A stretch of DNA of 64,000 nucleotides from an uncultured Azospirillum sp. (GTDB taxonomy: Bacteria > Pseudomonadota > Alphaproteobacteria > RF32 > CAG-239). Shown one piece after another: positions 9,039 to 20,287 of this stretch. The first letter of the stretch is position 1; each line of letters opens with the position of its first letter. The position numbers and the translations under genes were made by a program. The notes below the pieces were generated by a model. The model was not told where the DNA came from, did not search any database, and was given only the letters and a program-made list of their open reading frames with translations. The stretch is taken from contig CABUBU010000002.1 in NCBI GenBank assembly GCA_902489795.1, forward strand, positions 13,207 to 77,206, written 5' to 3'.

Positions 9039-12000
9039 ATGAGTAATCAGGTATTGTTGGGGCAGGCGCTGCGGTCGATTGTCCTGAAAGGTTCAAAGGA
9101 AACCGAAGAGCGTTATGAGCGGGAGTTGGCCGCGGCGGAAGCCGACCGCAAAAAGGCCGAAGCCGAATTTAGGGCTGCCGGTGCCGTCCGCATCAAGGAG
9201 ATAAAACAGCGGATCGGAGAGCTTTCGGCAGAGATCAGACAGGCTGCGCCGCAACAAAAGAGAACGCTCGGCGAAGAAATCAAAAAGCTGAATGCGGAGA
9301 TTGAGAGCCTGAAAACGCCGCCGGCCAACCGTTTTGCTTATCTTGACAGCGAAATCAAGGCCTATGCCGGCAGTCAGCTGCTGTTTAAACCGCTGCTTTC
9401 GCCGCAGACGCTGGCAAAATACGGCGTTGCCTTTTCTTTTAACGAGCAGGGGCGGCTGGTGCTTGATGCCGACGAGTTGCGCGAGAGCCCCCTCGGCGAC
9501 AAAATCCGCTCCGGCGCCGATTATATTTTCGAACGCACCCGCGATCTTGGCGAAAAAATTACCCGTGCCGCCGACGTCAACAACATTGTGCTGATGGATG
9601 CCAAAAGACTGTTGTCGAGGGAACCGGAAGAAATAGATTTTGAACTGATTGAGGAATGTCATAACGCGTTCAATGCGGAAAAGGCCGAGCGGGAAAAGAA
9701 AAGCAAGGAGCTTGCCCGCCGCCGTGAGGAAAGCCGCACCGGCATCAGGGTGATAAAAGAGTATCCCGACGGCTATTCGATGGTCGAAATGCTGCCGAGT
9801 CCGGTTTATGACGAAAACGGAAAACTGCTTCATCATGTTTCGCTGAAATACGAATCCGACGAGATGGGGCACTGCGTCGGCCGCGGGGGATATAATGACC
9901 GTATCGGCACCGAAGGCTGGCATTTTTATTCGCTGCGCGGCCCGAACGAGGACGGCGTGTTGGTGCCGCACTGCACGATTTCGATAGAAAACGGCCGCCT
10001 GGCGCAAATCAAAGGCAATTCCAACCTGGCGGTCAAAAACCGTTATGTGGCCGACGTGCGCGATTTTGTGCAGTCGCTTGACATGCCGATTCCCAATTCG
10101 GAAAAGGAACGCATCGGTTATGTAAAAGACGTTAACAGGCGGGAAGTCGACCTGTTTGATTTGCAGCCGGGAACGGAACTAGAGAGTCTGAAGCTTGCGG
10201 CCGGCGATTATAAGGGCATCCGGTTGCAAAATGTTGCCCGGGTCGGCTGTCTGAGTTTTGAAGGCAAAGTCGATCTCAGAGATTACCGCGAGGCGGCGGC
10301 AATCGGCCGTATCGATTCCCTGACGCTGGAAACAGCGGAAGACGCGGCTCTTTACGATCGGGTGCCGCTCAATGTTGGCAAACTGCTGATTACCGGCGGC
10401 ATTCTGCCGCGGCATCTGGGACGGGCCGAAACCGTTGTGCTGGGCAAAGACGCAAAAGTGGACTTTTCCCGCGACTGGGAGAACGTCCGCCGGCTGGAAC
10501 TGAACGATGAAACCGTTCTTGACGCCCGGCGGCTGCCGGTGTTTGCCGAAGGGATCAAAGGCGGCATCTGGCATCATGTGGAAAATCTGACAACGTTTGA
10601 ATTGTTGAACAAAATGCTCGGAAGCGAATGGACTGCTGCTCATTGCCGGGTAGAAAACGGCAAGACGATTGTTGATGCCGACCTGGACTTAAGCGGGCGC
10701 GGCCTTGTCCGGCTGCCGCCGGATATGAAAAATACGGTAGTTCTGGGAACGCTTGATTTGTCGGATAATCGGCTGGACGATGTCAGTGCGCCGCTTGCGT
10801 ATCCGGATTGCGAAAGAATGATTTTGCGGAACGGTTTCGGCGTATATAATCCCGATCGTTTTGAAGCGCTGCCGTATTTGGCGGAGGGAATAGACTGCCG
10901 TCCTCGGGACGTATATCTGGAAAACCGCAATTTGGCCGAAGTGCTGGACAAATTTGCTCTGATCGACAGGGCGCGGATTAAAAACGAAAACGGCCGTTTC
11001 ATAATTGACGGCGACCTGGATCTGGATTCGCTGAATACGTTTGACGGTTCCGGTTTCCCCGGCCGTAACATTGAGAACATTGAAGTGACGGGGCGGTTTA
11101 CGGCGTTGTCCGAAATGACAGAATATCCTTCCTGTCGCACGCTTTGCCTGAGAGCTCTGCCGCAGGACGTTACGGTGTCTGATCAAACGGAAAAGGTGGT
11201 GTTTTTGCCGTCCCGCGAACATATAAGCAGGTTGAAAGGCAAAAATCTGAAACGGGTTGTTTTCAATGACTGCTATCTGACCTGCGCGGATTTGCATAAA
11301 TTTGATCCCGGCGTCAGTTATGAAGGAACTTTTTACTTAAAGGACGAGCCGGAAGCGGAAAAACCGGCAATGCAAGATTTCTCCGGCCTGCGGTTTGAAG
11401 GCATGTTAACAATTTCCGGCACCTGCAACATTGAAGGCATCAGTCGTTTGCCCCATTGTAAAAAAGTGAATTTTCACGGACGCGTAACGGAAAAGGAATT
11501 GCTGATGCTGCATCCCGAAACCGAAGAACTGCTCTGTCCCGACACGTTTGATTTGGATATGCTTCCCGCCGGCAGCCGTTTGAAATATATTTCTCTCAAC
11601 AGCAATTTTTATCACCGGAAAAAGGAAGAGTATACGGATTTTCTGCGTCGGGCTTCCGAGCGCGGAATCGTGTGCGGCTACGGCATTGAACCCGACTTAT
11701 CGCAGGATTTGTCCGATTGTCTGATGAAAAAGGTAGAACTACGCTGGGATGAGCAGCATAAGGATATTTCAACTCTGCCGCAGGCAGAAGAACTGCGCAT
11801 ACACAGTCCCGCTTACGGTTTTGACAATCGTTTTTTAAAAGATGCTTCGTCATATTTGAAAGTGTTGGATCTGTCCTATATGCGCGATCCTGTCGATTTT
11901 TCGGCACTGCCGCGGGATGTCGCTTTGCAGGAACTGTCCCTCGGCGACAGTCCGGTGCAAAGCGATATTCTCGAACAGTTGCCGAAATCGCTTGAATCAA

Positions 12001-12803
12001 TCCGGTTTCTGCGTTGTTCGGGCAACCCTGATCTGGAACCGATTAACCGTATGCCGAATTTGCAACGTCTCGACGTTTCCCAGATGATGGTCCCGGCCGA
12101 CGCGCTCGACCGGGTTGACCCCGATCGTCTGGCAGCGCTTGAGGTGAGCGGCGACACCGGTTTGGTCATGCGGGCGGAGGAGATCGTTGCCATCCATCAA
12201 TTGCCGCCGTCAAAGGAGAATGATCAGATCAGGAAAATGCATGAGTGGCTGACGACGGAAAACAAAGAAGTGCCCTATTTTGTCCGGCAGGTTGTTTTTT
12301 ACGGAACGGCCGGAGAGATATTGTCCGGCAAACATCCGCAGGCGGTTACGGCGGAGGAAATTGCCGCCAGGGTCAAAGGCGTGGAAAACTTCATGCTGGA
12401 CAACTGTGCCAAAATCATCATGGCGGAAGAACGCGGCCATAAAACCGGCAGCGAAAAGGCCGGTCGCGCCGTTTTGGGGGAAAACAAAGGGAAAAAGCCC
12501 GGTTTCTACGGTCATGTCACCGGTTATTATACGCATAGTCCCGATATTTCCAAAGCCGGCAAAATCGTCAGGTCGGTTTTGACCCGCAGTATCCGCCATC
12601 ATCCTGATTTTGCCAAAGCAGAAGAAATTGTTGCCGGCCGTCTGTCCGCGCATGCCCGAAATTTGCAGTTGAATTTCAACCGGCAGCTGACGGATCGGGG
12701 ACAAACGCTCAAAGCTTACGTCAATGCCGCACGGTACAACCAAGGCAATGCCGGTTTTAACGCTGCGGTTCGGAAAATGCACGAGTACAAAAGATACGGC
12801 TGA
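9039..12803 (+). CDS. large (1254 aa) PcfJ-like domain + leucine-rich-repeat protein, putative secreted effector/surface protein
   Basis: N-terminal coiled coil. PcfJ-like core as I recall it: EMGHCVGRGGYNDRIGTEGWHFYSLRG...HCTISIENGRLAQIKGNSN. Canonical LRR units (e.g. LDLSGRGLVRLPPDMKNTVVLGTLDLSDNRLDDVS) are followed by a long run of irregular L/I/V-x repeats. No signal peptide. Confidence 0.8.
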   Translation: MSNQVLLGQALRSIVLKGSKETEERYERELAAAEADRKKAEAEFRAAGAVRIKEIKQRIGELSAEIRQAAPQQKRTLGEEIKKLNAEIESLKTPPANRFAYLDSEIKAYAGSQLLFKPLLSPQTLAKYGVAFSFNEQGRLVLDADELRESPLGDKIRSGADYIFERTRDLGEKITRAADVNNIVLMDAKRLLSREPEEIDFELIEECHNAFNAEKAEREKKSKELARRREESRTGIRVIKEYPDGYSMVEMLPSPVYDENGKLLHHVSLKYESDEMGHCVGRGGYNDRIGTEGWHFYSLRGPNEDGVLVPHCTISIENGRLAQIKGNSNLAVKNRYVADVRDFVQSLDMPIPNSEKERIGYVKDVNRREVDLFDLQPGTELESLKLAAGDYKGIRLQNVARVGCLSFEGKVDLRDYREAAAIGRIDSLTLETAEDAALYDRVPLNVGKLLITGGILPRHLGRAETVVLGKDAKVDFSRDWENVRRLELNDETVLDARRLPVFAEGIKGGIWHHVENLTTFELLNKMLGSEWTAAHCRVENGKTIVDADLDLSGRGLVRLPPDMKNTVVLGTLDLSDNRLDDVSAPLAYPDCERMILRNGFGVYNPDRFEALPYLAEGIDCRPRDVYLENRNLAEVLDKFALIDRARIKNENGRFIIDGDLDLDSLNTFDGSGFPGRNIENIEVTGRFTALSEMTEYPSCRTLCLRALPQDVTVSDQTEKVVFLPSREHISRLKGKNLKRVVFNDCYLTCADLHKFDPGVSYEGTFYLKDEPEAEKPAMQDFSGLRFEGMLTISGTCNIEGISRLPHCKKVNFHGRVTEKELLMLHPETEELLCPDTFDLDMLPAGSRLKYISLNSNFYHRKKEEYTDFLRRASERGIVCGYGIEPDLSQDLSDCLMKKVELRWDEQHKDISTLPQAEELRIHSPAYGFDNRFLKDASSYLKVLDLSYMRDPVDFSALPRDVALQELSLGDSPVQSDILEQLPKSLESIRFLRCSGNPDLEPINRMPNLQRLDVSQMMVPADALDRVDPDRLAALEVSGDTGLVMRAEEIVAIHQLPPSKENDQIRKMHEWLTTENKEVPYFVRQVVFYGTAGEILSGKHPQAVTAEEIAARVKGVENFMLDNCAKIIMAEERGHKTGSEKAGRAVLGENKGKKPGFYGHVTGYYTHSPDISKAGKIVRSVLTRSIRHHPDFAKAEEIVAGRLSAHARNLQLNFNRQLTDRGQTLKAYVNAARYNQGNAGFNAAVRKMHEYKRYG

Positions 12804-13277
12804 CCTGCTGCATATGTCTGTAATTTGCCGTTGAGTTTCAACCGGCGGCAGGCACCGGGCAGAACTTGCCGCTCAAGTTTATGCCGCACGATACAGCCAA
12901 AACAATGGCGGTTTTAACACAGCGGTTCGGAAAATGCATGAGTATAAATAGATACGGCTGACCTGCTGCATATGTCTGTAATTTGCCGTTGAGTTTCAAC
13001 CGGCGGCAGGCACCGGGCAGAACTTGCCGCTCAAGTTTATGCCGCACGATACAGCCAAAACAATGGCGGTTTTAACACAGCGGTTCGGAAAATGCATGAG
13101 TATAAATAGATACGGCTGACCTGCTGCATATGTCTGTAATTTGCCGTTGAGTTTCAACCGGCGGCAGGCACCGGGCAGAACTTGCCGCTCAAGTTTATGC
13201 CGCACGATACAGCCAAAACAATGGCGGTTTTAACACAGCGGTTCGAAAAATGCATGAGTATAAAAGATACGGCTGAA
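12640..13277 (+). repeat. tandem array: last ~160 bp of the LRR gene plus three downstream 158/158/156-bp copies
   Basis: TGACCTGCTG recurs at 12801, 12959 and 13117 (period 158), and the array ends at the TGA at 13273-13275. The two identical 69-aa track ORFs (12838..13047 and 12996..13205) show the downstream copies are essentially identical. The in-gene copy is clearly more divergent and carries indels. Confidence 0.9.
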
Positions 13278-13347
13278 TGCCGGCACATGGTTTTGGGATT
13301 TTTTTTCACACAAAAGGCGGAATTAAAATCCCGCCTGCATGACGTCA

Positions 13348-13521
13348 GTTTTTTTATATTTCCTTTTTTCTTGTTTTTTCTTTCCCCTTGCTTCCTTCCT
13401 CTTTTTTCTTTCCGTTCCTCTATCTCTTTCCTCTTTTTTCTCTTCCCTTTGTTCTTGTTTTGCTCCTCTTTCCCTTGTTTTTACCTCTCTTTTTTTCTCT
13501 TCCTTTCTCTCTTTTTCCCCT
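13348..13521 (+). repeat. polypyrimidine (C/T) tract on the + strand
   Basis: About 170 bp made almost entirely of T and C with only scattered purines (tttttatatttccttttttcttgttttttctttcccc...ctctttttcccc). Confidence 0.9.
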
Positions 13522-13884
13522 GTGAGATTCAAAACAAATCAAAAATAATCAATCCGTTGAGCCATTCCGCATATCGCAAAGCTCACGCTTATATACCGAT
13601 AAGTTCTTCCCCATGGATAAAACTGTTATATCGAAACATTCTGACCACTATGCTGAATTTTCCCGGTTTTCGTGTCGAATTTGTTCCGGCATCTTATATT
13701 CTGTTTTGAGTCTTTCGCATCTTTTATTTTTTTCTCTTTTCTTTCCCGCTGTTTGGGTGAGATCCATGAATTTGCTCATTTTATTCGCTTGTAAAATGAC
13801 AGAGCAGGGTGGTTTCTGCTTATAGGCGACGGCTTTTTCTGTCATGATTCCGACAGGCGAGGCCTTGACGAATTGAGAAATTCT

Positions 13885-13930
13885 TCCTTCTCCTTCTCCT
13901 TCTCCTTCTCCTTCTCCTTCTCCTTCTCCG
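13885..13930 (+). repeat. hexanucleotide microsatellite (CTCCTT)n, about 7.7 units
   Basis: Six perfect CTCCTT units at 13891-13926, preceded by TTCCTT and followed by the partial unit CTCC. Confidence 0.95.
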
Positions 13931-14176
13931 GTTCCTCTTTGCCGAGTCAGTATTTAGCACCCGTCATGGATATCTCCCGGTAGATTGGTAGTTATGAAAC
14001 AGCAAAGCTAACGGTTTGCCCATGATCAAAGACGTGTGGCGGTGTTGTCCCGATACCAAAGCATTCAATTCCCGGTAAACAGGGGCTGTAAGAAATGTAT
14101 AAAAAAACAAAAGCGCCGAAAAAACGCTTTTGTCAGAACGGGTTAAATTCACTCCTTATTTTTCTTTTTACCGTTT

Positions 14177-14506
14177 TTAATACCAGTAAAATTTCAGGAA
14201 ATTATGCGCGTAATACCAGCAGCCGCCGACCATGGCAAGGGAAACGGCAAGCAGTCCCGCGCGTTTGGCGAGAGTCGCTTGTTTGAAGAAAAAACTGCGG
14301 TAAAGAAAAGCGAACGCAATTCCGTACGCGATCACGATCGCAAAATAAATCTGTCGGTGTTTTAATATGTTGGCGGGATTGGATATATAATAAGCCGGTC
14401 TGCCGAAAAAGGAATTGAAAATTTCAAAGGCAAAAACCGAGAAAAAGATCAGCCAGCAGAAGGCAAAAATAAAATTTACACTGTTGGAAATGAATTTATT
14501 GTTCAT
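14177..14506 (-). CDS. small multi-pass membrane protein, distant member of the island family
   Basis: 109-aa ORF with 3-4 hydrophobic helices, the motif RQIYFAIV after the first loop, an aromatic C-terminus FLKFYWY, and the same strand and tight spacing as the neighbours. Confidence 0.55.
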   Translation of the reverse strand: MNNKFISNSVNFIFAFCWLIFFSVFAFEIFNSFFGRPAYYISNPANILKHRQIYFAIVIAYGIAFAFLYRSFFFKQATLAKRAGLLAVSLAMVGGCWYYAHNFLKFYWY

Positions 14507-14545
14507 GATAAGCTCCGATATAAAAAGCGTCTTGTCAAAATCCTG

Positions 14546-15010
14546 TCAGCGGATGTGTTCAAGGTAATAATCAAACCAAAACGAAGAGGTTATTTCCCAT
14601 TCCGGATACTGCTCAACGAAATAAACGTCAATATATGCCAGCATGAAAGCCGGGATGAAAAGAAAAACGGACGCGATCAGAATGAAAGTCTTATGCCACA
14701 GGTTGCGCGGGCAGAGGAAGTAATGCCGGTAAAAACGCCAGGCGATCCAAAGATATATAAACAGCAGTGCATAATGGACGGCCATATAAATATAAATGTT
14801 TCGTCCGTATGAGGCCGCACTGCGGAACACGCCGATATAAGCCCCGTCGACTTGTTTGAACAGGTAGCCGAAAAAAAGCAGCCATATGATCAAAAACGCC
14901 GAATTGAGCAGCAAATTATAGACGTTAACCAGCCAGACCGGAAAATGAATATCATCGTCTTCGGTAAAAAATGCGGCAATTTGTTCGTATTTTGTTTTTT
15001 TGTCAGTCAT
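14546..15010 (-). CDS. small multi-pass membrane protein, distant member of the island family
   Basis: 154-aa ORF with a loop ending GRNIYIY, SSFWFD near the C-terminus, and its own promoter at 15045-15073. Confidence 0.6.
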   Translation of the reverse strand: MTDKKTKYEQIAAFFTEDDDIHFPVWLVNVYNLLLNSAFLIIWLLFFGYLFKQVDGAYIGVFRSAASYGRNIYIYMAVHYALLFIYLWIAWRFYRHYFLCPRNLWHKTFILIASVFLFIPAFMLAYIDVYFVEQYPEWEITSSFWFDYYLEHIR

Positions 15011-15020
15011 AACAACCCCA

Positions 15021-15046
15021 CAGTTTGCAACGGTTTATGCAAACTG
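15021..15046. promoter_or_regulatory. perfect 9-bp inverted repeat CAGTTTGCA-N8-TGCAAACTG at the predicted transcription start
   Basis: Arms at 15021-15029 and 15038-15046. It overlaps the -10 by 2 nt and lies 11 nt upstream of the ATG at 15010. Confidence 0.5.
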
Positions 15047-15073
15047 TATAATACAAACGATTTTGTTTGTCAA
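15045..15073 (-). promoter_or_regulatory. sigma70-like promoter of the 154-aa membrane-protein gene
   Basis: Minus strand reads TTGACA (15073-15068), a 17-nt spacer, then TATACA (15050-15045). The upstream context CAACTTTTAATTGACA matches the other island promoters. Confidence 0.55.
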
Positions 15074-15278
15074 TTAAAAGTTGCTGAATTTGTCAATTTT
15101 GCAACCATAGGTTGTAATTCGTCTTAATGCCTTAAAAAAACACAAATTATTATAGACGAATTTTTATAAAAATAAACATTTTTTTATTCTGGTTCGGATA
15201 AAATTTTTCATTTTCCGACATGTTATGAAAAAAGGAAGCGTTTTTGTTTCCTTTTGGCTGCCGATTCGTTCGCAGAAG

Positions 15279-16220
15279 TCATTCTGATGCCCAAAAGGCA
15301 TTGTAACTGCTGTCATTTAAAATCGGCAATTCGTAAATTGCCGCAAACAGCAGGAAGGCGATGACCGCGCACAAAGCCGAGCCGGCAAGAGCAATAATCC
15401 GGGTTTTAATCCGGCTTTCGGCGGCAAACATCATTTGTCCGAATTTATAGAAAAAATAGCTGTAGACCACGGTTAATGCTGCGGCGAATATCGTATAGGC
15501 GTAAATGTTGCCTTGATACGTCTGTCCGAGAATAATTATTACCGTGTACATGCGGTAAAGAAAATAATAGAAAAAGCCCCAGCCACAGACAAAAAGCAGC
15601 TGCGCGATTACGGCGGCCAGTATAATCATCGGCTTTTCGCGGGTGAATTCTTTTGTCGGCAGTCCGTCGCCGTCATCGTTTATTAAACCGGTTTTCCTTT
15701 TTGGGGTATCATCCTGATCTTGGTTTCTGAAAACTACGGTTTGTTTTATGTCCGCGTCTGTTAAATTGTCTGTATAAGCGGCGGGTGGGGAAGAGACGGA
15801 ACGATTTGCCCGACTGTTTAACACGGCGAGCCGCTTCGGCGTTTGCAAAGCTTTGTCCGCCGCTTTCTGGCGGCCGGTCAGACTGGAGCGTCTGCCGTTC
15901 TCTTCGGGCGTATTTTCGCAAACGACGGTTTTGTTTTTTTCCGGAGAGAAGAAGAAAATTTTTTCTTTTCGTTTTGGCTTGCGGGAATGAGGGAAAAACG
16001 TCTGGTGCCGAACGTTTCCTGTCGGACGGTCGCTTTGCCGATTTTCTTTGTCTTGGTTGTTTTTGGCGGAATCATAATCCGCTTTGCCGGCCGGCGGCAT
16101 TTCATCTGAAGACGGGATGATAGTCGTTTTTTCATCTTTGATTGAGAAAGAGCGGGCTTCTTTTTTGGGGGTGCTGGGGTTCGTCGGAAATGTTTTTCCG
16201 ACGGGCATTGGATGTTCCAT
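15279..16220 (-). CDS. island-family membrane domain fused to a ~190-aa low-complexity N-terminal extension
   Basis: 313-aa ORF. The C-terminal ~120 aa (…LLFVCGWGFFYYFLY…GQTYQGNIYAY…YKFGQMMF…NAFWASE) aligns with the 136-141-aa paralogs. The N-terminus is rich in K/P/S/T/N/D. Confidence 0.7.
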   Translation of the reverse strand: MEHPMPVGKTFPTNPSTPKKEARSFSIKDEKTTIIPSSDEMPPAGKADYDSAKNNQDKENRQSDRPTGNVRHQTFFPHSRKPKRKEKIFFFSPEKNKTVVCENTPEENGRRSSLTGRQKAADKALQTPKRLAVLNSRANRSVSSPPAAYTDNLTDADIKQTVVFRNQDQDDTPKRKTGLINDDGDGLPTKEFTREKPMIILAAVIAQLLFVCGWGFFYYFLYRMYTVIIILGQTYQGNIYAYTIFAAALTVVYSYFFYKFGQMMFAAESRIKTRIIALAGSALCAVIAFLLFAAIYELPILNDSSYNAFWASE

Positions 16221-16565
16221 GTTTTTATTTTCCTTGTTGCAACCTTTTAATTAAGCTCCGGAAGATAAAAATCAATGCCTGATTGTTAAATATTTCGCCT
16301 TGCCGCCTTCTGTTTTGAAAAGGGGATACAACTTGCCCGAAGCTGAACCGGACTGTACAAAAAAATCGTTGCCTTCCGCATAGAACGGAAGATTGATTTG
16401 TCCCGACGGAAAAATTGTTCGGCCGCCGGTGCGAAAGCTTTTCCGTCCGTCAAAAGTTAATTATCTTTTGGGTGCGATATGAAAAAATTAATTAATTATC
16501 ACGGAAAAAAACAAAGTTTTTCTGCAACTCCATATTATGTTTAGATAGGAAATCAAACGATTCTG

Positions 16566-16976
16566 TTATTGTGCCCAAAAGGCCGTATACGTTCCTGAAC
16601 GGAAAAAAGGCAAAAGCTGAACGCCGCTATATGCCGGAAACAGCAGAAAAGCGCAAATAAGCGAGCAGAATATTGCCCATACTTTTAATTTTAGGGAAGT
16701 GTGAGAACTAAACAGCATTTTGCCGAATTTATAACAACAATAAGGGTAAACCGCGGTAAGCAGTATGGCGTATAAAGTATCCGCATAAATGTTGCCCTTG
16801 GGGTCGGTTATTCCCGGAATAACAAATGAAAGATATAACCGTAAAAGATACAGAAAGAAAACTCCTCACCCGAGGACAAAGATAATCTGCATTATCAATA
16901 CGGCGGTTGCGGAAAGAGGGTTTTGTTTAAAGTTGCTGATGTATTCTTTGCCATAGGCAGCGATTTTGTTTTTCAT
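16566..16976 (-). pseudogene. island-family paralog disrupted by one in-frame TGA
   Basis: Own translation: MKNKIAAYGKEYISNFKQNPLSATAVLIMQIIFVLG*GVFFLYLL...TAFWAQ. It is 137 codons, the same length as the 17157 paralog. The stop replaces the Trp of the conserved LGWG motif (TGG->TGA). Confidence 0.8.
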
Positions 16977-17009
16977 TTTGTTTATTCTCAATAACGTTTG
17001 GCAAGCGGT

Positions 17010-17024
17010 GTTCTGGTTTTGTTC
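17010..17024 (-). promoter_or_regulatory. LexA (SOS) box, alphaproteobacterial type GTTC-N7-GTTC
   Basis: + strand reads GTTC tggtttt GTTC, 33 nt upstream of the ATG at 16976. Confidence 0.55.
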
Positions 17025-17064
17025 TCTTTCGGGGTAAAAAAAACAATTCCTTAAATCTGTTCAA

Positions 17065-17093
17065 GAGATATAACGAAACTTTACTCCCGTCAA
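17065..17093 (-). promoter_or_regulatory. sigma70-like promoter of module copy 3
   Basis: Minus strand reads TTGACG (17093-17088), a 17-nt spacer, then TATCTC (17070-17065). Confidence 0.45.
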
Positions 17094-17156
17094 TCAAAAG
17101 TTGAAGCTTCTGTTTCGTTGTAACATATTTACTAGATTGAAAGCATTATAAATTTG

Positions 17157-17567
17157 TCAATCGGCCCAGAAAGCAACGCTGGTTTGCGGTAAAAAGAAAA
17201 CGGCTTCATTCAGCAGCAGCTGCAAAGGATATGCCAATATGGCACATAAAAGCGAAAGGGCTAAAATTATTACCTTTGGTTTAAGAGTATTGTTATTAAG
17301 AAAAAGAGTCCTAAAAGATTTGTAGATAAAAAACGAAAAGATAAAAGCGATGACTGTCAGCGAAAACGTTTCCGGATATATAGCGGTTTTGGTATATGTT
17401 CTGCCGGGAATGATATATCTTATGTATCTTTCACACAAGAAAGTATAAAAAGTTCCCCATCCGAGGATAAAGATAATCTGTATTATCAGTACGGCGGTTG
17501 CGGAAAGAGGGTTTTGTTTAAAGTTGTTAATATATTCTTTGCCGTAGGCGGCGATTTTGTTTTTCAT
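17157..17567 (-). CDS. island-family small membrane protein (136 aa from MKNK start)
   Basis: Track ORF 17157..17588. The start was moved to the MKNKIAAYG Met shared with the pseudogene copy, which lacks the upstream ATG. Motifs: LGWGTFY, PGRTYTKTAIY, YKSFRTLF, VAFWAD. Three to four predicted TM helices. Confidence 0.75.
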   Translation of the reverse strand: MKNKIAAYGKEYINNFKQNPLSATAVLIIQIIFILGWGTFYTFLCERYIRYIIPGRTYTKTAIYPETFSLTVIAFIFSFFIYKSFRTLFLNNNTLKPKVIILALSLLCAILAYPLQLLLNEAVFFLPQTSVAFWAD

Positions 17568-17600
17568 TTTATTTACTTTCAATGACATTTTGTGAAGTAT

Positions 17601-17615
17601 GTTCCTATTTTGTTC
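17601..17615 (-). promoter_or_regulatory. LexA (SOS) box GTTC-N7-GTTC
   Basis: + strand reads GTTC ctatttt GTTC, 33 nt upstream of ATG 17567 (12 nt upstream of the alternative ATG 17588). Confidence 0.55.
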
Positions 17616-17655
17616 TGTTTTGAGGCAAAAAAAACAATTTCTTAAACCTGTTCAA

Positions 17656-17684
17656 AAGATATAGTACAATTTTATTTCTGTCAA
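17656..17684 (-). promoter_or_regulatory. sigma70-like promoter of module copy 2
   Basis: Minus strand reads TTGACA (17684-17679), a 17-nt spacer, then TATCTT (17661-17656). Confidence 0.5.
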
Positions 17685-17741
17685 TCAAAGGTTGATTGCT
17701 TGTATTGCTTCGGTGTTTAAGGTTCAGAAGATAATGTTTGT

Positions 17742-18125
17742 TCAGACGAACAAGATCCCTAATGCCGAATAAAGTAATTCTGACAAAAAAGACCAAAAAA
17801 CAAGGCAGCAAAGCGAGTTTATTAACGCGGCCGTTTTTTCGGTAAAGGAACTGTTATTGCCAAACATAACTTTTGCCATTTTATAAGCAACATAAGTGTA
17901 GATTATAAAGATACCGCTTTCAGCAATAACCTTAATGTAAAAGTTTGTTTTGTCGGGAAAGTCTCCAAAGATATAATCGCTGAATTCTTTATAAAGAGTA
18001 TAATAATATACTCCCCATTCCGATAGGAAAAGAAAATAAAACATAAGGATAGCCAACAATCTGCCTGGGTGTTTACGGAAATTTGAAAAAGGCGTTTTTG
18101 TTGCAGGTAAAGTCTTTTGTGTCAT
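17742..18125 (-). CDS. island-family small membrane protein (127 aa)
   Basis: Motifs LSEWGVYYYTLY, DKTNFY, YKMAKVMF. The start overlaps the stop of the upstream paralog by 4 nt (ATGA), which suggests translational coupling. Confidence 0.7.
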   Translation of the reverse strand: MTQKTLPATKTPFSNFRKHPGRLLAILMFYFLFLSEWGVYYYTLYKEFSDYIFGDFPDKTNFYIKVIAESGIFIIYTYVAYKMAKVMFGNNSSFTEKTAALINSLCCLVFWSFLSELLYSALGILFV

Positions 18126-18547
18126 TTGTTCTCTCCGTCTTGTACAGCCCAGAAAGCGGTAGGTACGTTATCGCTGAAGCGGGGTATAAAACGCGCAATG
18201 CTGAACTCTCCCGAAATCAAAGCAAAAACGGCAGAAATGAGAACAGCATAAATTTTTAGACGGAAACCTTTGTTGATGGCAAACATATTCGGGAACAATC
18301 GGCAAAATATATAAGTATATACAAGAGTTTGAATTATAATGTCCGCGCATTCGACATAAATATTGCTTTTAGGTCCCGATTGCCCGGGAATAACAATTGT
18401 AATAATGTTGCCCAAAATATAGTAAAAATATACTCCCCATCCGAGGACAAAGATAATCTGCATTATCAGTACGGCGGTTGCGGAAAGAGGGTTTTGTTTA
18501 AAGTTGTTAATATATTCTTTGCCGTAGGCGGCGATTTTGTTTTTCAT
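18122..18547 (-). CDS. island-family small membrane protein (141 aa from MKNK start), first gene downstream of the toxin
   Basis: Track ORF 18122..18568. Motifs: LGWGVYFYY, PGQSGPKSNIY, TAFWAV. The first 36 residues from MKNK differ from the 17157 paralog at only 2 positions; the rest is divergent. Confidence 0.75.
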   Translation of the reverse strand: MKNKIAAYGKEYINNFKQNPLSATAVLIMQIIFVLGWGVYFYYILGNIITIVIPGQSGPKSNIYVECADIIIQTLVYTYIFCRLFPNMFAINKGFRLKIYAVLISAVFALISGEFSIARFIPRFSDNVPTAFWAVQDGENK

Positions 18548-18580
18548 TTTATTTACTTTCAATGACATTTTGTGAAGTAT

Positions 18581-18595
18581 GTTCCTATTTTGTTC
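18581..18595 (-). promoter_or_regulatory. LexA (SOS) box GTTC-N7-GTTC
   Basis: + strand reads GTTC ctatttt GTTC, 33 nt upstream of ATG 18547. Confidence 0.55.
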
Positions 18596-18635
18596 TGTTT
18601 TGAGGCAAAAAAAACAATTTCTTAAACCTGTTCAA

Positions 18636-18664
18636 AAGATATAGTGCAATTTTATTTCTGTCAA
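18636..18664 (-). promoter_or_regulatory. sigma70-like promoter of module copy 1
   Basis: Minus strand reads TTGACA (18664-18659), a 17-nt spacer, then TATCTT (18641-18636). Confidence 0.5.
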
Positions 18665-18738
18665 TCAAAAGTTGAAGAAAAAATGTTTTAGATAAAAATT
18701 TAATTGAAAAAATAATATGTACAATAATTGGTCGGCAT

Positions 18739-19473
18739 TTATTTTCTTCGTTTGTTCCAATCGTCATATTTATAGTTCACATAGATATCCATCGGATATT
18801 CGCTGGCGCGGATGAATTTTGCCACTTCATCCATACTGTCGGTTGTATCAATACAGCCGGCAGATCCGGGAACTTCGCCGCCGTGGAGATAAAAACCTTT
18901 GCGGTGCTTGGTGTCGGTGCGAAAATCGTCCGGTTCAAGCCTGATCCGATAATTCCCCCATGAGCGTGTTCCGCCCTGCCAGGGTGTTTCTCCGTTGGGG
19001 CCTCGCCAGCTGCGGCTTTCCTTTTCCGGCGAATAGGTCTGCAGTTCGTCCGGATTTAAGTGCCAAACGCCCTCGGGGATGGGACCGTGATTTTCAATTT
19101 CTGTTGCCGCACGGCTTTGATATCCGGGTTTCCCGGACATGGCGGGCCAGGATTTTAACGTTTTTTCATTATTAATTGCTGTCAGGGTTTGCCCGTCAAA
19201 TTCCATTTCCGGAATGTCTTCGGAACCAAAAGCGGGCCAAAAAGAAACCGGTTTGCCGTTCCGATACAGGGTAAAGGTTGAGCCGTCGCTTTTCAGCTCT
19301 ACGCGTGGTTTGGGCGTTTTCAATTCCATGTCGTCGTTGTAATCGGCAAGCTGCTGTTCGAGAAGTTCGCGCGTGGTCATTTCCTTTTTTGGCCGCGGCG
19401 TCATCTGGCTGCCTAATCCGTACATGTTCAACAGAGCCGTACGGATGTCGTCATCTTCTTCGTATCTACTCAT
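18739..19473 (-). CDS. DUF2778 / Tlde1-family L,D-transpeptidase-fold toxin-domain protein
   Basis: 244-aa ORF with no signal peptide and an acidic N-terminus. The C-terminal half carries the family hallmarks as I recall them: SWPAMSGKPGYQ...NHGPIPEGVWHL, and HRKGFYLHGGEVPGSAGCIDT (a His-x10-Cys pair in a YkuD-like arrangement). Confidence 0.8.
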   Translation of the reverse strand: MSRYEEDDDIRTALLNMYGLGSQMTPRPKKEMTTRELLEQQLADYNDDMELKTPKPRVELKSDGSTFTLYRNGKPVSFWPAFGSEDIPEMEFDGQTLTAINNEKTLKSWPAMSGKPGYQSRAATEIENHGPIPEGVWHLNPDELQTYSPEKESRSWRGPNGETPWQGGTRSWGNYRIRLEPDDFRTDTKHRKGFYLHGGEVPGSAGCIDTTDSMDEVAKFIRASEYPMDIYVNYKYDDWNKRRK

Positions 19474-19494: not shown

Positions 19495-19521
19495 AAAAAA
19501 AGCGCCGGAAAGTTCCGGCGC
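19495..19521 (-). terminator. intrinsic terminator 21 nt upstream of the toxin start codon
   Basis: Stem GCGCCGG (19502-19508) / CCGGCGC (19515-19521). On the minus strand it is followed by TTTTTTT and then caatttgcaaaggaatatgaaATG. Confidence 0.65.
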
Positions 19522-19813: not shown

Positions 19814-20287
19814 TCAGCCGCGGGTGCGGACGAAACGAACGATGTCTGCGTCGGCCCAGGGGGTAAATTCAACTGCGGCAAGGTCGGGAAGAAGGGAGGA
19901 AAAACCTTCTTCAAGAAGCGGCAGCAGCCATGAAATCAGCAGAGCGATACCGGCTGAGCACAACAAAATCAGCGTTTTTTTGCCGAGTCCCACTTTTTCG
20001 ACGAACATGCCGCGAAAAAAATACATAAAAGGCGGCACCGACAGTGCCAGGGTTACGGCAATTTCGAACATAACCATATAAACGCCGGAGCAGGGAACTT
20101 CCGGCAAAGAAAAGTCGCAATAGCAGCCTTTGGCAAGCACCGTGATCAGGACATGTCCGAGTTCGGTGAAAAAGAACCACCAGCCGGCGGCAAAAACGAA
20201 ATCAAGGGCGCGGCCGACCGGCTTTCCGGCGGCGTTTTCGCGCGGCGCCCGGTAAGAATAGGAAGGGGTAAAGCGTTTGTCCATCAT
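19814..20287 (-). CDS. island-family small membrane protein (157 aa), upstream of the toxin
   Basis: Motifs AAGWWFFF, SGVYMVMF, YFFRGMF, EFTPWAD. Three to four hydrophobic helices. GC is higher than in the downstream paralogs. Confidence 0.7.
   Translation of the reverse strand: MMDKRFTPSYSYRAPRENAAGKPVGRALDFVFAAGWWFFFTELGHVLITVLAKGCYCDFSLPEVPCSGVYMVMFEIAVTLALSVPPFMYFFRGMFVEKVGLGKKTLILLCSAGIALLISWLLPLLEEGFSSLLPDLAAVEFTPWADADIVRFVRTRG

Follow-up and report, generated by a model that had tools for sequence, protein, structure and literature searches.

Recombining 5′ modules in a tandem array of membrane-protein genes beside a Tlde1-like toxin candidate from an uncultured gut alphaproteobacterium

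A tandem array of paralogous membrane-protein genes, three of which (A, B and C) begin with copies of one 242-nt repeat, was analysed together with the gene of a toxin candidate located in the middle of the array. The locus lies on a 64,000-nt stretch of contig CABUBU010000002.1 from an uncultured Azospirillum sp.; this whole stretch, not the array alone, is referred to as the window. Several described systems are comparable. In Staphylococcus aureus, the tsaI array is found downstream of TspA, a type VII secretion system (T7SS) toxin (Garrett et al. 2022, PMC9484751); little evidence of recombination was seen there by the authors, and the T7SS immunity arrays esaG and tipC evolve by homologous recombination between conserved blocks (PMC9484751). 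In the lpl tandem lipoprotein cluster of the same organism, a conserved intragenic region is the site of recombination (Tsuru and Kobayashi 2008, PMC2568036). Tlde1/Tldi1 (Tae5–7/Tai5–7) are DUF2778 effector–immunity pairs of type VI secretion systems (T6SS) (PMC9638812; bioRxiv 10.1101/2020.02.18.954545) with the catalytic motif H...(S/T)HGC in Tlde1 (PMC9638812), and the Tai7 immunity proteins of DUF2778 effectors have transmembrane (TM) domains (bioRxiv 10.1101/2020.02.18.954545). Orphan T6SS immunity arrays of Vibrio cholerae arise when effectors are displaced (Kirchberger et al. 2017, PMC5361080).

The present locus resembles tsaI in that tandem, non-identical genes of putative polytopic membrane immunity proteins lie beside a candidate polymorphic toxin, and in that a single 5′ block of high similarity covers the first TM helices and is followed by a variable C-terminal part. 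It differs in that TsaI belongs to an unrelated family (DUF443, five TM segments, Firmicutes, T7SS), in that conversion tracts, module mosaics and rearrangements are explicit, and in that the block reaches back over promoter and leader. Likeness to esaG and tipC consists in the use of conserved blocks (55–100 nt in those arrays) as crossover points, with copy-number changes and hybrid genes among close strains; their products are soluble, however, and their genes carry two or three blocks each, as opposed to one 242-nt block in a Gram-negative host. Conserved blocks of at least 40–70 nt beside a toxin characterise such arrays; here, eight same-strand paralogs were found, three of them with the 242-nt block at 83–98% identity, and recombination in the block alters both sequence and copy number among close strains. 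No homology of the family to EsaG, TipC or TsaI was detected in Pfam, NCBIfam and PDB fold searches, and the resemblance to these arrays is best regarded as analogy, not as family membership.

With lpl, the locus has the intragenic recombination site in common (in the related loci L018 and L005 the repeat spans the gene junction), but the lpl block is central and serves a function in host interaction, not in toxin immunity. Tlde1/Tldi1 offer as parallels a fold derived from L,D-transpeptidases and containing a catalytic His and Cys, the TM domains of Tai7, and orphan immunities; the locus departs from them in having eight paralogs rather than a bicistron and no T6SS genes nearby. The paralogs showed no detectable homology to DUF2195/Tldi1 and no Pfam match, and they are predicted integral membrane proteins with three TM segments instead of periplasmic proteins with a Sec signal. 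As in V. cholerae, the effector C-terminus is replaced through recombination in conserved upstream sequence and downstream immunity-like genes are retained; there, unrelated immunity families are acquired by horizontal gene transfer, whereas here a single paralogous family has concerted 5′ ends. Neither a site-specific recombinase open reading frame (ORF; 13–21 kb) nor inverted repeats at the cassette borders, as for an integron or other recombinase-borne cassette array, were found; likewise, there was no simple-sequence repeat in the promoter spacer or in the coding sequence, and no flanking inverted repeat, as for a phase-variable locus. What the locus presents is the known pattern of toxin–immunity arrays in a new protein family, a new phylum and with a new toxin partner.

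The 5′ modules and their exchange

Modules A, B and C denote the 242-nt 5′ repeats of the minus-strand genes of the same names. A repeat search with 17454–17695 as reference returned a single direct-repeat family with three copies, by which the 980-bp offset and the four mismatches of the original prediction, as well as its third, more diverged copy, were reproduced. Each module comprises a promoter-like site, a leader of about 80 nt and the first 37 codons plus 2 nt (to the GWG motif); the encoded protein part corresponds to a Lys-rich cytoplasmic N-tail and about the first (inner) half of TM1. In a MAFFT three-way alignment and in identity matrices both edges were sharp. Upstream, similarity begins at TCAACTTTTGATTGACA, nothing further upstream being common to the copies; downstream, it ends two bases past the Gly-Trp codons of GWG. 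The identity of B and C amounts to 98% within the module, as compared with 52% in the next 310 nt, which could not be aligned, so that the predicted boundary inside the coding sequence was found and uniform divergence was not.

Gene conversion was examined by comparison with locus L001 (99.55% identity to the window over 8468 bp, C tails 100% identical). More than half of the differences (20 of 38) fall within 58 bp of module C, and at all 20 positions the C module of the window is the same as its own B module. The number of differences expected in such a tract is 0.26 (P=6.5e-31; 5.5e-27 when corrected for all window positions). The converted segment measures 58–108 bp and is bracketed by C-specific markers at 18606 and 18497. 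Conversion proceeded from B to C in the lineage of the window, because the L001 state of the tract resembles the C modules of other strains. L029 lacks gene B, and its A tail, which has the same in-frame TGA as in the window, follows a module with B-like sequence over about 205 nt; such a hybrid would be expected from a crossover between modules B and A.

Synonymous (pS) and non-synonymous (pN) divergence was calculated as Nei–Gojobori estimates. Between paralogs of this genome, pS was 0.00–0.27 in the module (0 of 22.8 sites for B and C) and 0.66–0.83 in the tail (the C-terminal two thirds of the protein). Between orthologs of different species, module pS was saturated (0.55–0.85), and module pN (0.23–0.37) was similar to tail pN (0.26–0.43); the module is therefore no better conserved than the tail between species. 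Synonymous positions of the module and non-coding positions of the leader are homogenised likewise. Gene conversion, and neither recent duplication nor purifying selection, maintains the likeness of the 5′ ends, in agreement with the homogenisation originally proposed.

Protein comparisons gave the same pattern. The N-terminal 36 amino acids are 92–97% identical among paralogs of this genome (69–97% within the genomes of L013, L015, L018 and L019) and 39–58% identical between species. Tails, on the other hand, are 23–36% identical between paralogs; compared with their own type from other species, they reach 52–53% (A), 55–59% (B) and 42–49% (C). N-termini thus group by species, and tails of types A, B and C have their orthologs in the other species. 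Genome-specific N-termini were found in the same manner in L015, L018 and L019; the one peculiar to L015, KNYLQNFREHPGKATVALVLQIVFL.GW, occurs four times, and that of L018, MKQQIATYFREYRENFRQKPFQ.., three times. The DNA repeats of other species measure 152–208 nt and can cover the end of the previous gene together with the intergenic spacer. Because module and tail phylogenies conflict, the tail types are ancient, stable paralog types that predate the species, with only the 5′ ends evolving in concert; the idea that the 3′ parts are currently diversifying was accordingly given up. A different layout was observed in the sister species L005 (10001–11301; also in L006–L008): three 136-amino-acid paralogs follow one another with a 445-bp period and 34-nt spacers, copies 2 and 3 have no promoter module in front, and copy 3 (A3) is a mosaic of a copy-2 head (108 nt, 99%) and a copy-1 tail (300 nt, 90%).

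Variation within the species was assessed with a set of 22 loci and with 47 module copies (32 distinct sequences), 13 loci having been added by scanning metagenome contigs with a 29-nt module pattern. All comparison loci (L-numbers) are short-read metagenome assemblies. With T244 and T226 denoting the two toxin alleles and 127 a paralog without module, five arrangements were found: T244-C-127-B-A, T244-B-C-127-A, T226-B-C-127-A, T226-B-A and C-127-A. Gene order and copy number therefore vary between strains, as could be expected of the cassettes proposed originally, and every such change has its junctions at modules. Module identity was 92.2% within a genome for different types, 92.2% between genomes for the same type and 91.7% when both differed, and polymorphic blocks of the module alignment are common to different cassette types. 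Since identity is independent of cassette type over the 47 copies, module variants are unlinked from tail type.

The array is not an assembly artefact of the window, because over 20 independent metagenome assemblies from the human gut have the same structure. The species-representative match is the metagenome-assembled genome "Azospirillum sp. 51_20" (toxin 97% identical), and the remaining matches are uncultured gut Alphaproteobacteria.

A −35/−10 pair had been predicted for each of the three copies, with three independent transcription starts. In modules B and C the pair TTGACA-17-TATCTT was found, and its hexamers are the least variable module positions (0.005 each, as compared with 0.031–0.062 elsewhere; 47 copies); it therefore fits a working promoter. 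Copy A has TTGACG/TATCTC, which was not called in the promoter scan, and only two of the three copies look expressible. A structured leader or riboswitch was considered and rejected on the basis of a fold z-score of +0.48, that is, no RNA structure in the leader, and of the absence of Rfam matches in 12.5–20.5 kb. Downstream of the −10 hexamer, the leader contains a homopolymeric run of T (~18606–18614 and ~17626–17634), the length of which ranges from T7 to T9 over the 47 module copies; this could be sequencing noise or expression tuning.

The membrane-protein family and the toxin candidate

The three module-bearing genes, predicted as a triplet, belong to an array of eight paralogs; a family hidden Markov model (HMM) built from the paralog alignment matched nothing else in the window. 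Genes A, B, C and 127 are arranged in tandem on the minus strand. The ATG of gene 127 overlaps the stop codon of gene C (ATGA), so that C and 127 form one unit, and both always occur together in other strains. The conserved N-terminus was present as originally quoted, with the limitation that in copy A the Trp of GWG is replaced by TGA. Apart from this codon, gene A stays in frame to the TAA at 16566. It is intact in most strains, among them L013 and nine other loci; truncations in the population (stops at codons 36, 99 and 127; window and equivalents in L002–L004, L028 and L029) represent at least three independent alleles. In view of the in-frame TGA and the degraded promoter, copy A looks like a decaying allele of an orphan gene.

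Three hydrophobic helices following the Lys-rich N-tail were predicted for the paralogs. In the AlphaFold model of C, helices comprise residues 2–18, 20–52, 63–89 and 95–114. The tail is predicted to begin with the outer half of TM1, followed by a loop in the periplasm, by TM2 and TM3 and by an end (...AFWA) that is again periplasmic. Searches of the family against Pfam and NCBIfam gave sub-threshold noise only, and Foldseek of the C model against the PDB gave no match with E<8. An anti-phage defence system was rejected as a candidate, PADLOC being without a match for any gene. A profile search of 1.84 billion representatives returned 48 clusters only, and the family was encountered nowhere but next to this toxin (10 species-level genomes).

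The 244-amino-acid toxin candidate scored 31.5 bits against PF03734 (YkuD; cutoff 23.4), and its database homologs carry precomputed matches to PF10908 (Tlde1_dom). An HGG...GSAGCID motif is kept, in which H197 and C207 align with H121 and C131 of Tlde1a at the same spacing. When a profile of the toxin homologs was searched against the PDB, Tlde1a of Salmonella was the sole match (E=3.3e-10). The AlphaFold2 (AF2) model had a predicted local distance difference test (pLDDT) score of 77.9 (>85 over the domain), and its best Foldseek matches were the Tlde1a structures 7uo3, 7uo8 and 7uma (7uo3_A: E=7.5e-8, template-modelling score on the target 0.62), ahead of YkuD and LdtMt. Model and profile match both point to the altered L,D-transpeptidase fold of Tlde1a. 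In comparison with Tlde1, the protein has an extra conserved N-terminal region of about 90 amino acids; no signal peptide or TM segment was predicted. WD40 matches obtained with phmmer against the PDB were discarded as repeat-driven noise, no single stretch being significant.

Relatives of the toxin were collected by a profile scan of genome contigs with a 7-sequence toxin alignment. Distant homologs are fused to Phage_Mu_F or PF13699, as expected of a polymorphic toxin module. The database homologs P0004, P0006 and P0016 are chimeric or contain adapter sequence and are not usable as evidence of new fusions; the ending LSLIHI of two chimeric database ORFs is presumably the translation of a Nextera adapter. 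Exchange of the toxin C-terminus was apparent from two comparisons. L002 and L003 are 98–100% identical except from about toxin codon 54 to the first module, and the T244 and T226 alleles share a near-identical N-terminus followed by 47% identity. L003 7800–8900 (toxin C-terminus, spacer and gene B; ~18100–19200 in window terms) is 98–100% identical to L005, a sister species, although the flanks of this stretch are only 55–80% identical; such a stretch inside such flanks indicates a probable recent inter-species transfer of a cassette with the toxin C-terminus. The toxin thus combines a conserved N-terminus with a C-terminal domain that is swapped between strains and species, as in polymorphic toxins. 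The features of the locus are collated in Table 1.

Table 1. Features of the array and its surroundings in the window (all on the minus strand).
Feature	Position	Strand	Basis or remark
109-amino-acid paralog, core member, final array gene	14177..14506	-	HMM
154-amino-acid paralog, core member	14546..15010	-	HMM
313-amino-acid paralog, ~200-amino-acid low-complexity N-terminal extension	15279..16220	-	ORF, alignment, HMM
Gene A, nonsense allele	16566..16976	-	In-frame TGA at 16866-16868 replaces Trp of GWG
5′ module copy A	16863..17104	-	Diverged, 83-85% identity
Gene B, 136-amino-acid paralog	17157..17567	-	ORF, family HMM; alternative ATG 17588
5′ module copy B	17454..17695	-	Reference copy of repeat family
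Sigma-70-like promoter, copy B, TTGACA-17-TATCTT	17656..17684	-	Promoter scan, module alignment
Gene 127, 127-amino-acid paralog without module	17742..18125	-	ORF, family HMM
Gene C, 141-amino-acid 3-TM membrane protein	18122..18547	-	ORF; alternative ATG 18568; family HMM E=2.6e-52; AF2 pLDDT 90.4
5′ module copy C	18434..18675	-	98% to copy B, 4 mismatches, 980-bp offset
Minimal conversion tract, B-type sequence inside C module	18530..18587	-	Maximal bounds 18498-18605
Sigma-70-like promoter, copy C, TTGACA-17-TATCTT	18636..18664	-	10/12 match
244-amino-acid Tlde1-like L,D-transpeptidase-fold toxin candidate	18739..19473	-	PF03734, Tlde1a profile and fold match
Strong terminator-like hairpin between 157 gene and toxin	19502..19521	-	8 pairs, 7 GC, then T7
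157-amino-acid paralog upstream of toxin, core member in all species	19814..20287	-	HMM E=2.6e-34
Terminator-like hairpin past last paralog, array end	14106..14134	-	Hairpin scan

The immunity reading and its rivals

The explanation preferred for the locus as a whole, recombining 5′ modules in an immunity-like array beside a toxin, is assigned a probability of about 0.75. According to this explanation, the 5′ modules are repeatedly overwritten through gene conversion in short tracts and through unequal crossover among the members of the array, so that concerted evolution is limited to the 5′ end and the modules become the breakpoints at which cassettes are deleted, duplicated or re-ordered. 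Each cassette would obtain a transcription start of its own from its module. The paralogs would be immunity proteins against variants of a periplasm-acting toxin, the specificity being set by the variable, periplasm-facing part. GWG would be the end point of conversion for two reasons: homology extends no further, and selection would act against converting the specificity region. We infer the immunity function from the strict linkage to the toxin in 10 species-level genomes, the layout of the array, the periplasm-facing variable parts and the Tai7 precedent, in line with the toxin/immunity type of cassette suggested in the original prediction, as the array abuts a Tlde1-like toxin with a swapped C-terminal domain.

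Several observations weigh against this explanation. With regard to the toxin, the score against PF10908 (27.2 bits) lies below the gathering cutoff of 30.1, and throughout the subfamily Ala (SAGC) takes the place of the second (S/T)HGC His (H129 of Tlde1a). T6SS or other secretion genes were not found among the large ORFs of the window, which outside the array are housekeeping genes only. With regard to immunity, the function is drawn from linkage and topology only, and no consistent toxin–immunity pairing emerged from co-occurrence across the loci: the toxin is always followed by a family member, but there is no clean correspondence between the type of that member and the toxin allele, one and the same B-C-127-A array stands behind both T244 and T226 (L002 and L003), and in the relative L014, whose toxin is T244-like, 151, 154 and 109 are the only types. 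With regard to recombination, mosaic modules could be chimeric, given that the comparison assemblies are short-read, and the L029 contig measures only 1.1 kb.

Were recombination correctly described and the family nevertheless not one of immunity proteins, it might serve export, anchoring or envelope remodelling, or the "toxin" might be a housekeeping cell-wall enzyme. Such a role would agree with the lack of a derivable cognate pairing, with the conserved chromosomal site in all species, with the absence of secretion genes nearby (64-kb window) and with a family devoid of annotated relatives. It is nonetheless considered unlikely, since swaps of the toxin C-terminus and inter-species transfer at 98–100% identity are typical of antagonism loci and not of housekeeping enzymes, since a housekeeping periplasmic L,D-transpeptidase would have a signal peptide, and since the expansion of the array, the orphan-like decay of A and the TM-containing Tai7 proteins fit immunity. 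A contingency locus had been suggested as well; like a phase-variation locus, it would turn cassettes on and off or move them into an expression site. The cassette-like layout would suit it, and the T7–T9 tract of the leader is the only other support. That tract lies downstream of the −10 hexamer, outside spacer and coding sequence; each cassette has a promoter-like site, no silent promoterless cassettes were found in the species, and the inverted repeats of an invertible element and a recombinase are lacking in the locus, all of which makes the suggestion very improbable.

The remaining alternatives concern the origin of the identity boundary. Tandem same-strand paralogs with such a boundary could also result without conversion, if whole genes were duplicated recently and their 3′ parts then came under accelerated diversifying selection. 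Tails that are closer to their orthologs in other species than to paralogs of the same genome (42–59% as compared with 23–36% amino acid identity), tail synonymous sites that are saturated while module pS is 0–0.27, and a discrete conversion tract separating two 99.55% identical strains leave this course of events hardly any probability. Strong purifying selection on a common promoter, leader and N-terminal anchor, again with no exchange, would account for the low variability of the −35/−10 hexamers and for an N-terminus that is native to the family; it would leave the homogenised synonymous and leader positions (B and C: pS 0 of 22.8 sites, as opposed to 0.55–0.85 between species) unaccounted for, as well as a module that diverges as fast as the tail between species and module variants that are mosaics common to several cassette types, and it is scarcely credible on these grounds. 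Finally, a collapsed or mis-joined repeat comes to mind with window and comparators from short reads and with chimeric and adapter-containing contigs among the protein database matches. Given the identical arrangement in L001, L013, L028 and L032, each from different samples, and C-specific markers that restrict the shared sequence available to a double path switch to 18 and 32 bp, an artefact, which was to have refuted the original prediction, is next to impossible.

Chromosomal setting and implications

The locus is always situated between the HAD hydrolase/Memo-AMMECR1/dnaE side and the serS/trpS side. The array is low in GC (33–44%; window 13000–19000), as compared with 50–61% in the flanks, though its position is conserved across species. 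Adjoining it is a 1254-amino-acid ORF (9039–12803, plus strand) with no Pfam or PADLOC match, which is kept in close relatives (1254–1264 amino acids) and absent from the more distant L011, where serS directly follows the array. A 158-bp tandem repeat (12724–13276; 3.5 copies, 96% identity) begins in the 3′ end of this ORF and continues into the intergenic region, and BLAST pieces suggest another copy number in L001. It is followed by a CT-rich low-complexity stretch (13300–13960) with (TCCTTC)x7.5 at 13885–13929, including a 12-bp insertion relative to L001 (13918–13929); the spurious ORFs of this stretch include a poly-Arg run.

In the literature, this organism has received incidental mentions only, and the papers mentioning it contained nothing on interbacterial antagonism in this group of uncultured gut bacteria. 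No secretion system lies in the 64-kb window, which prompts the question of toxin delivery. The genome-specific homogenisation of the modules might itself be adaptive: promoter, leader, cytoplasmic helix and half of TM1 would then form an "expression-and-anchor handle" that is portable and in co-evolution with a single genome-specific partner, which could be the conserved N-terminal region of the toxin, its export route or a membrane receptor, and that also serves as homology arm for capturing, shuffling and losing specificity cassettes. This proposal is improbable; if true, a toxin system of gut Alphaproteobacteria would possess an integron-like immunity repertoire that works without an integrase.

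The locus is a clean natural example of concerted evolution in part of a gene, with tracts resolved to tens of bases because close strains and sister species are available from metagenomes. It suggests a domain map in which a generic N-tail and inner TM1 are set apart from a variable, periplasm-facing remainder that may determine specificity. In uncultured Alphaproteobacteria of the human gut, the previously uncharacterised 3-TM family is probably the partner that provides immunity to Tlde1-like toxins.

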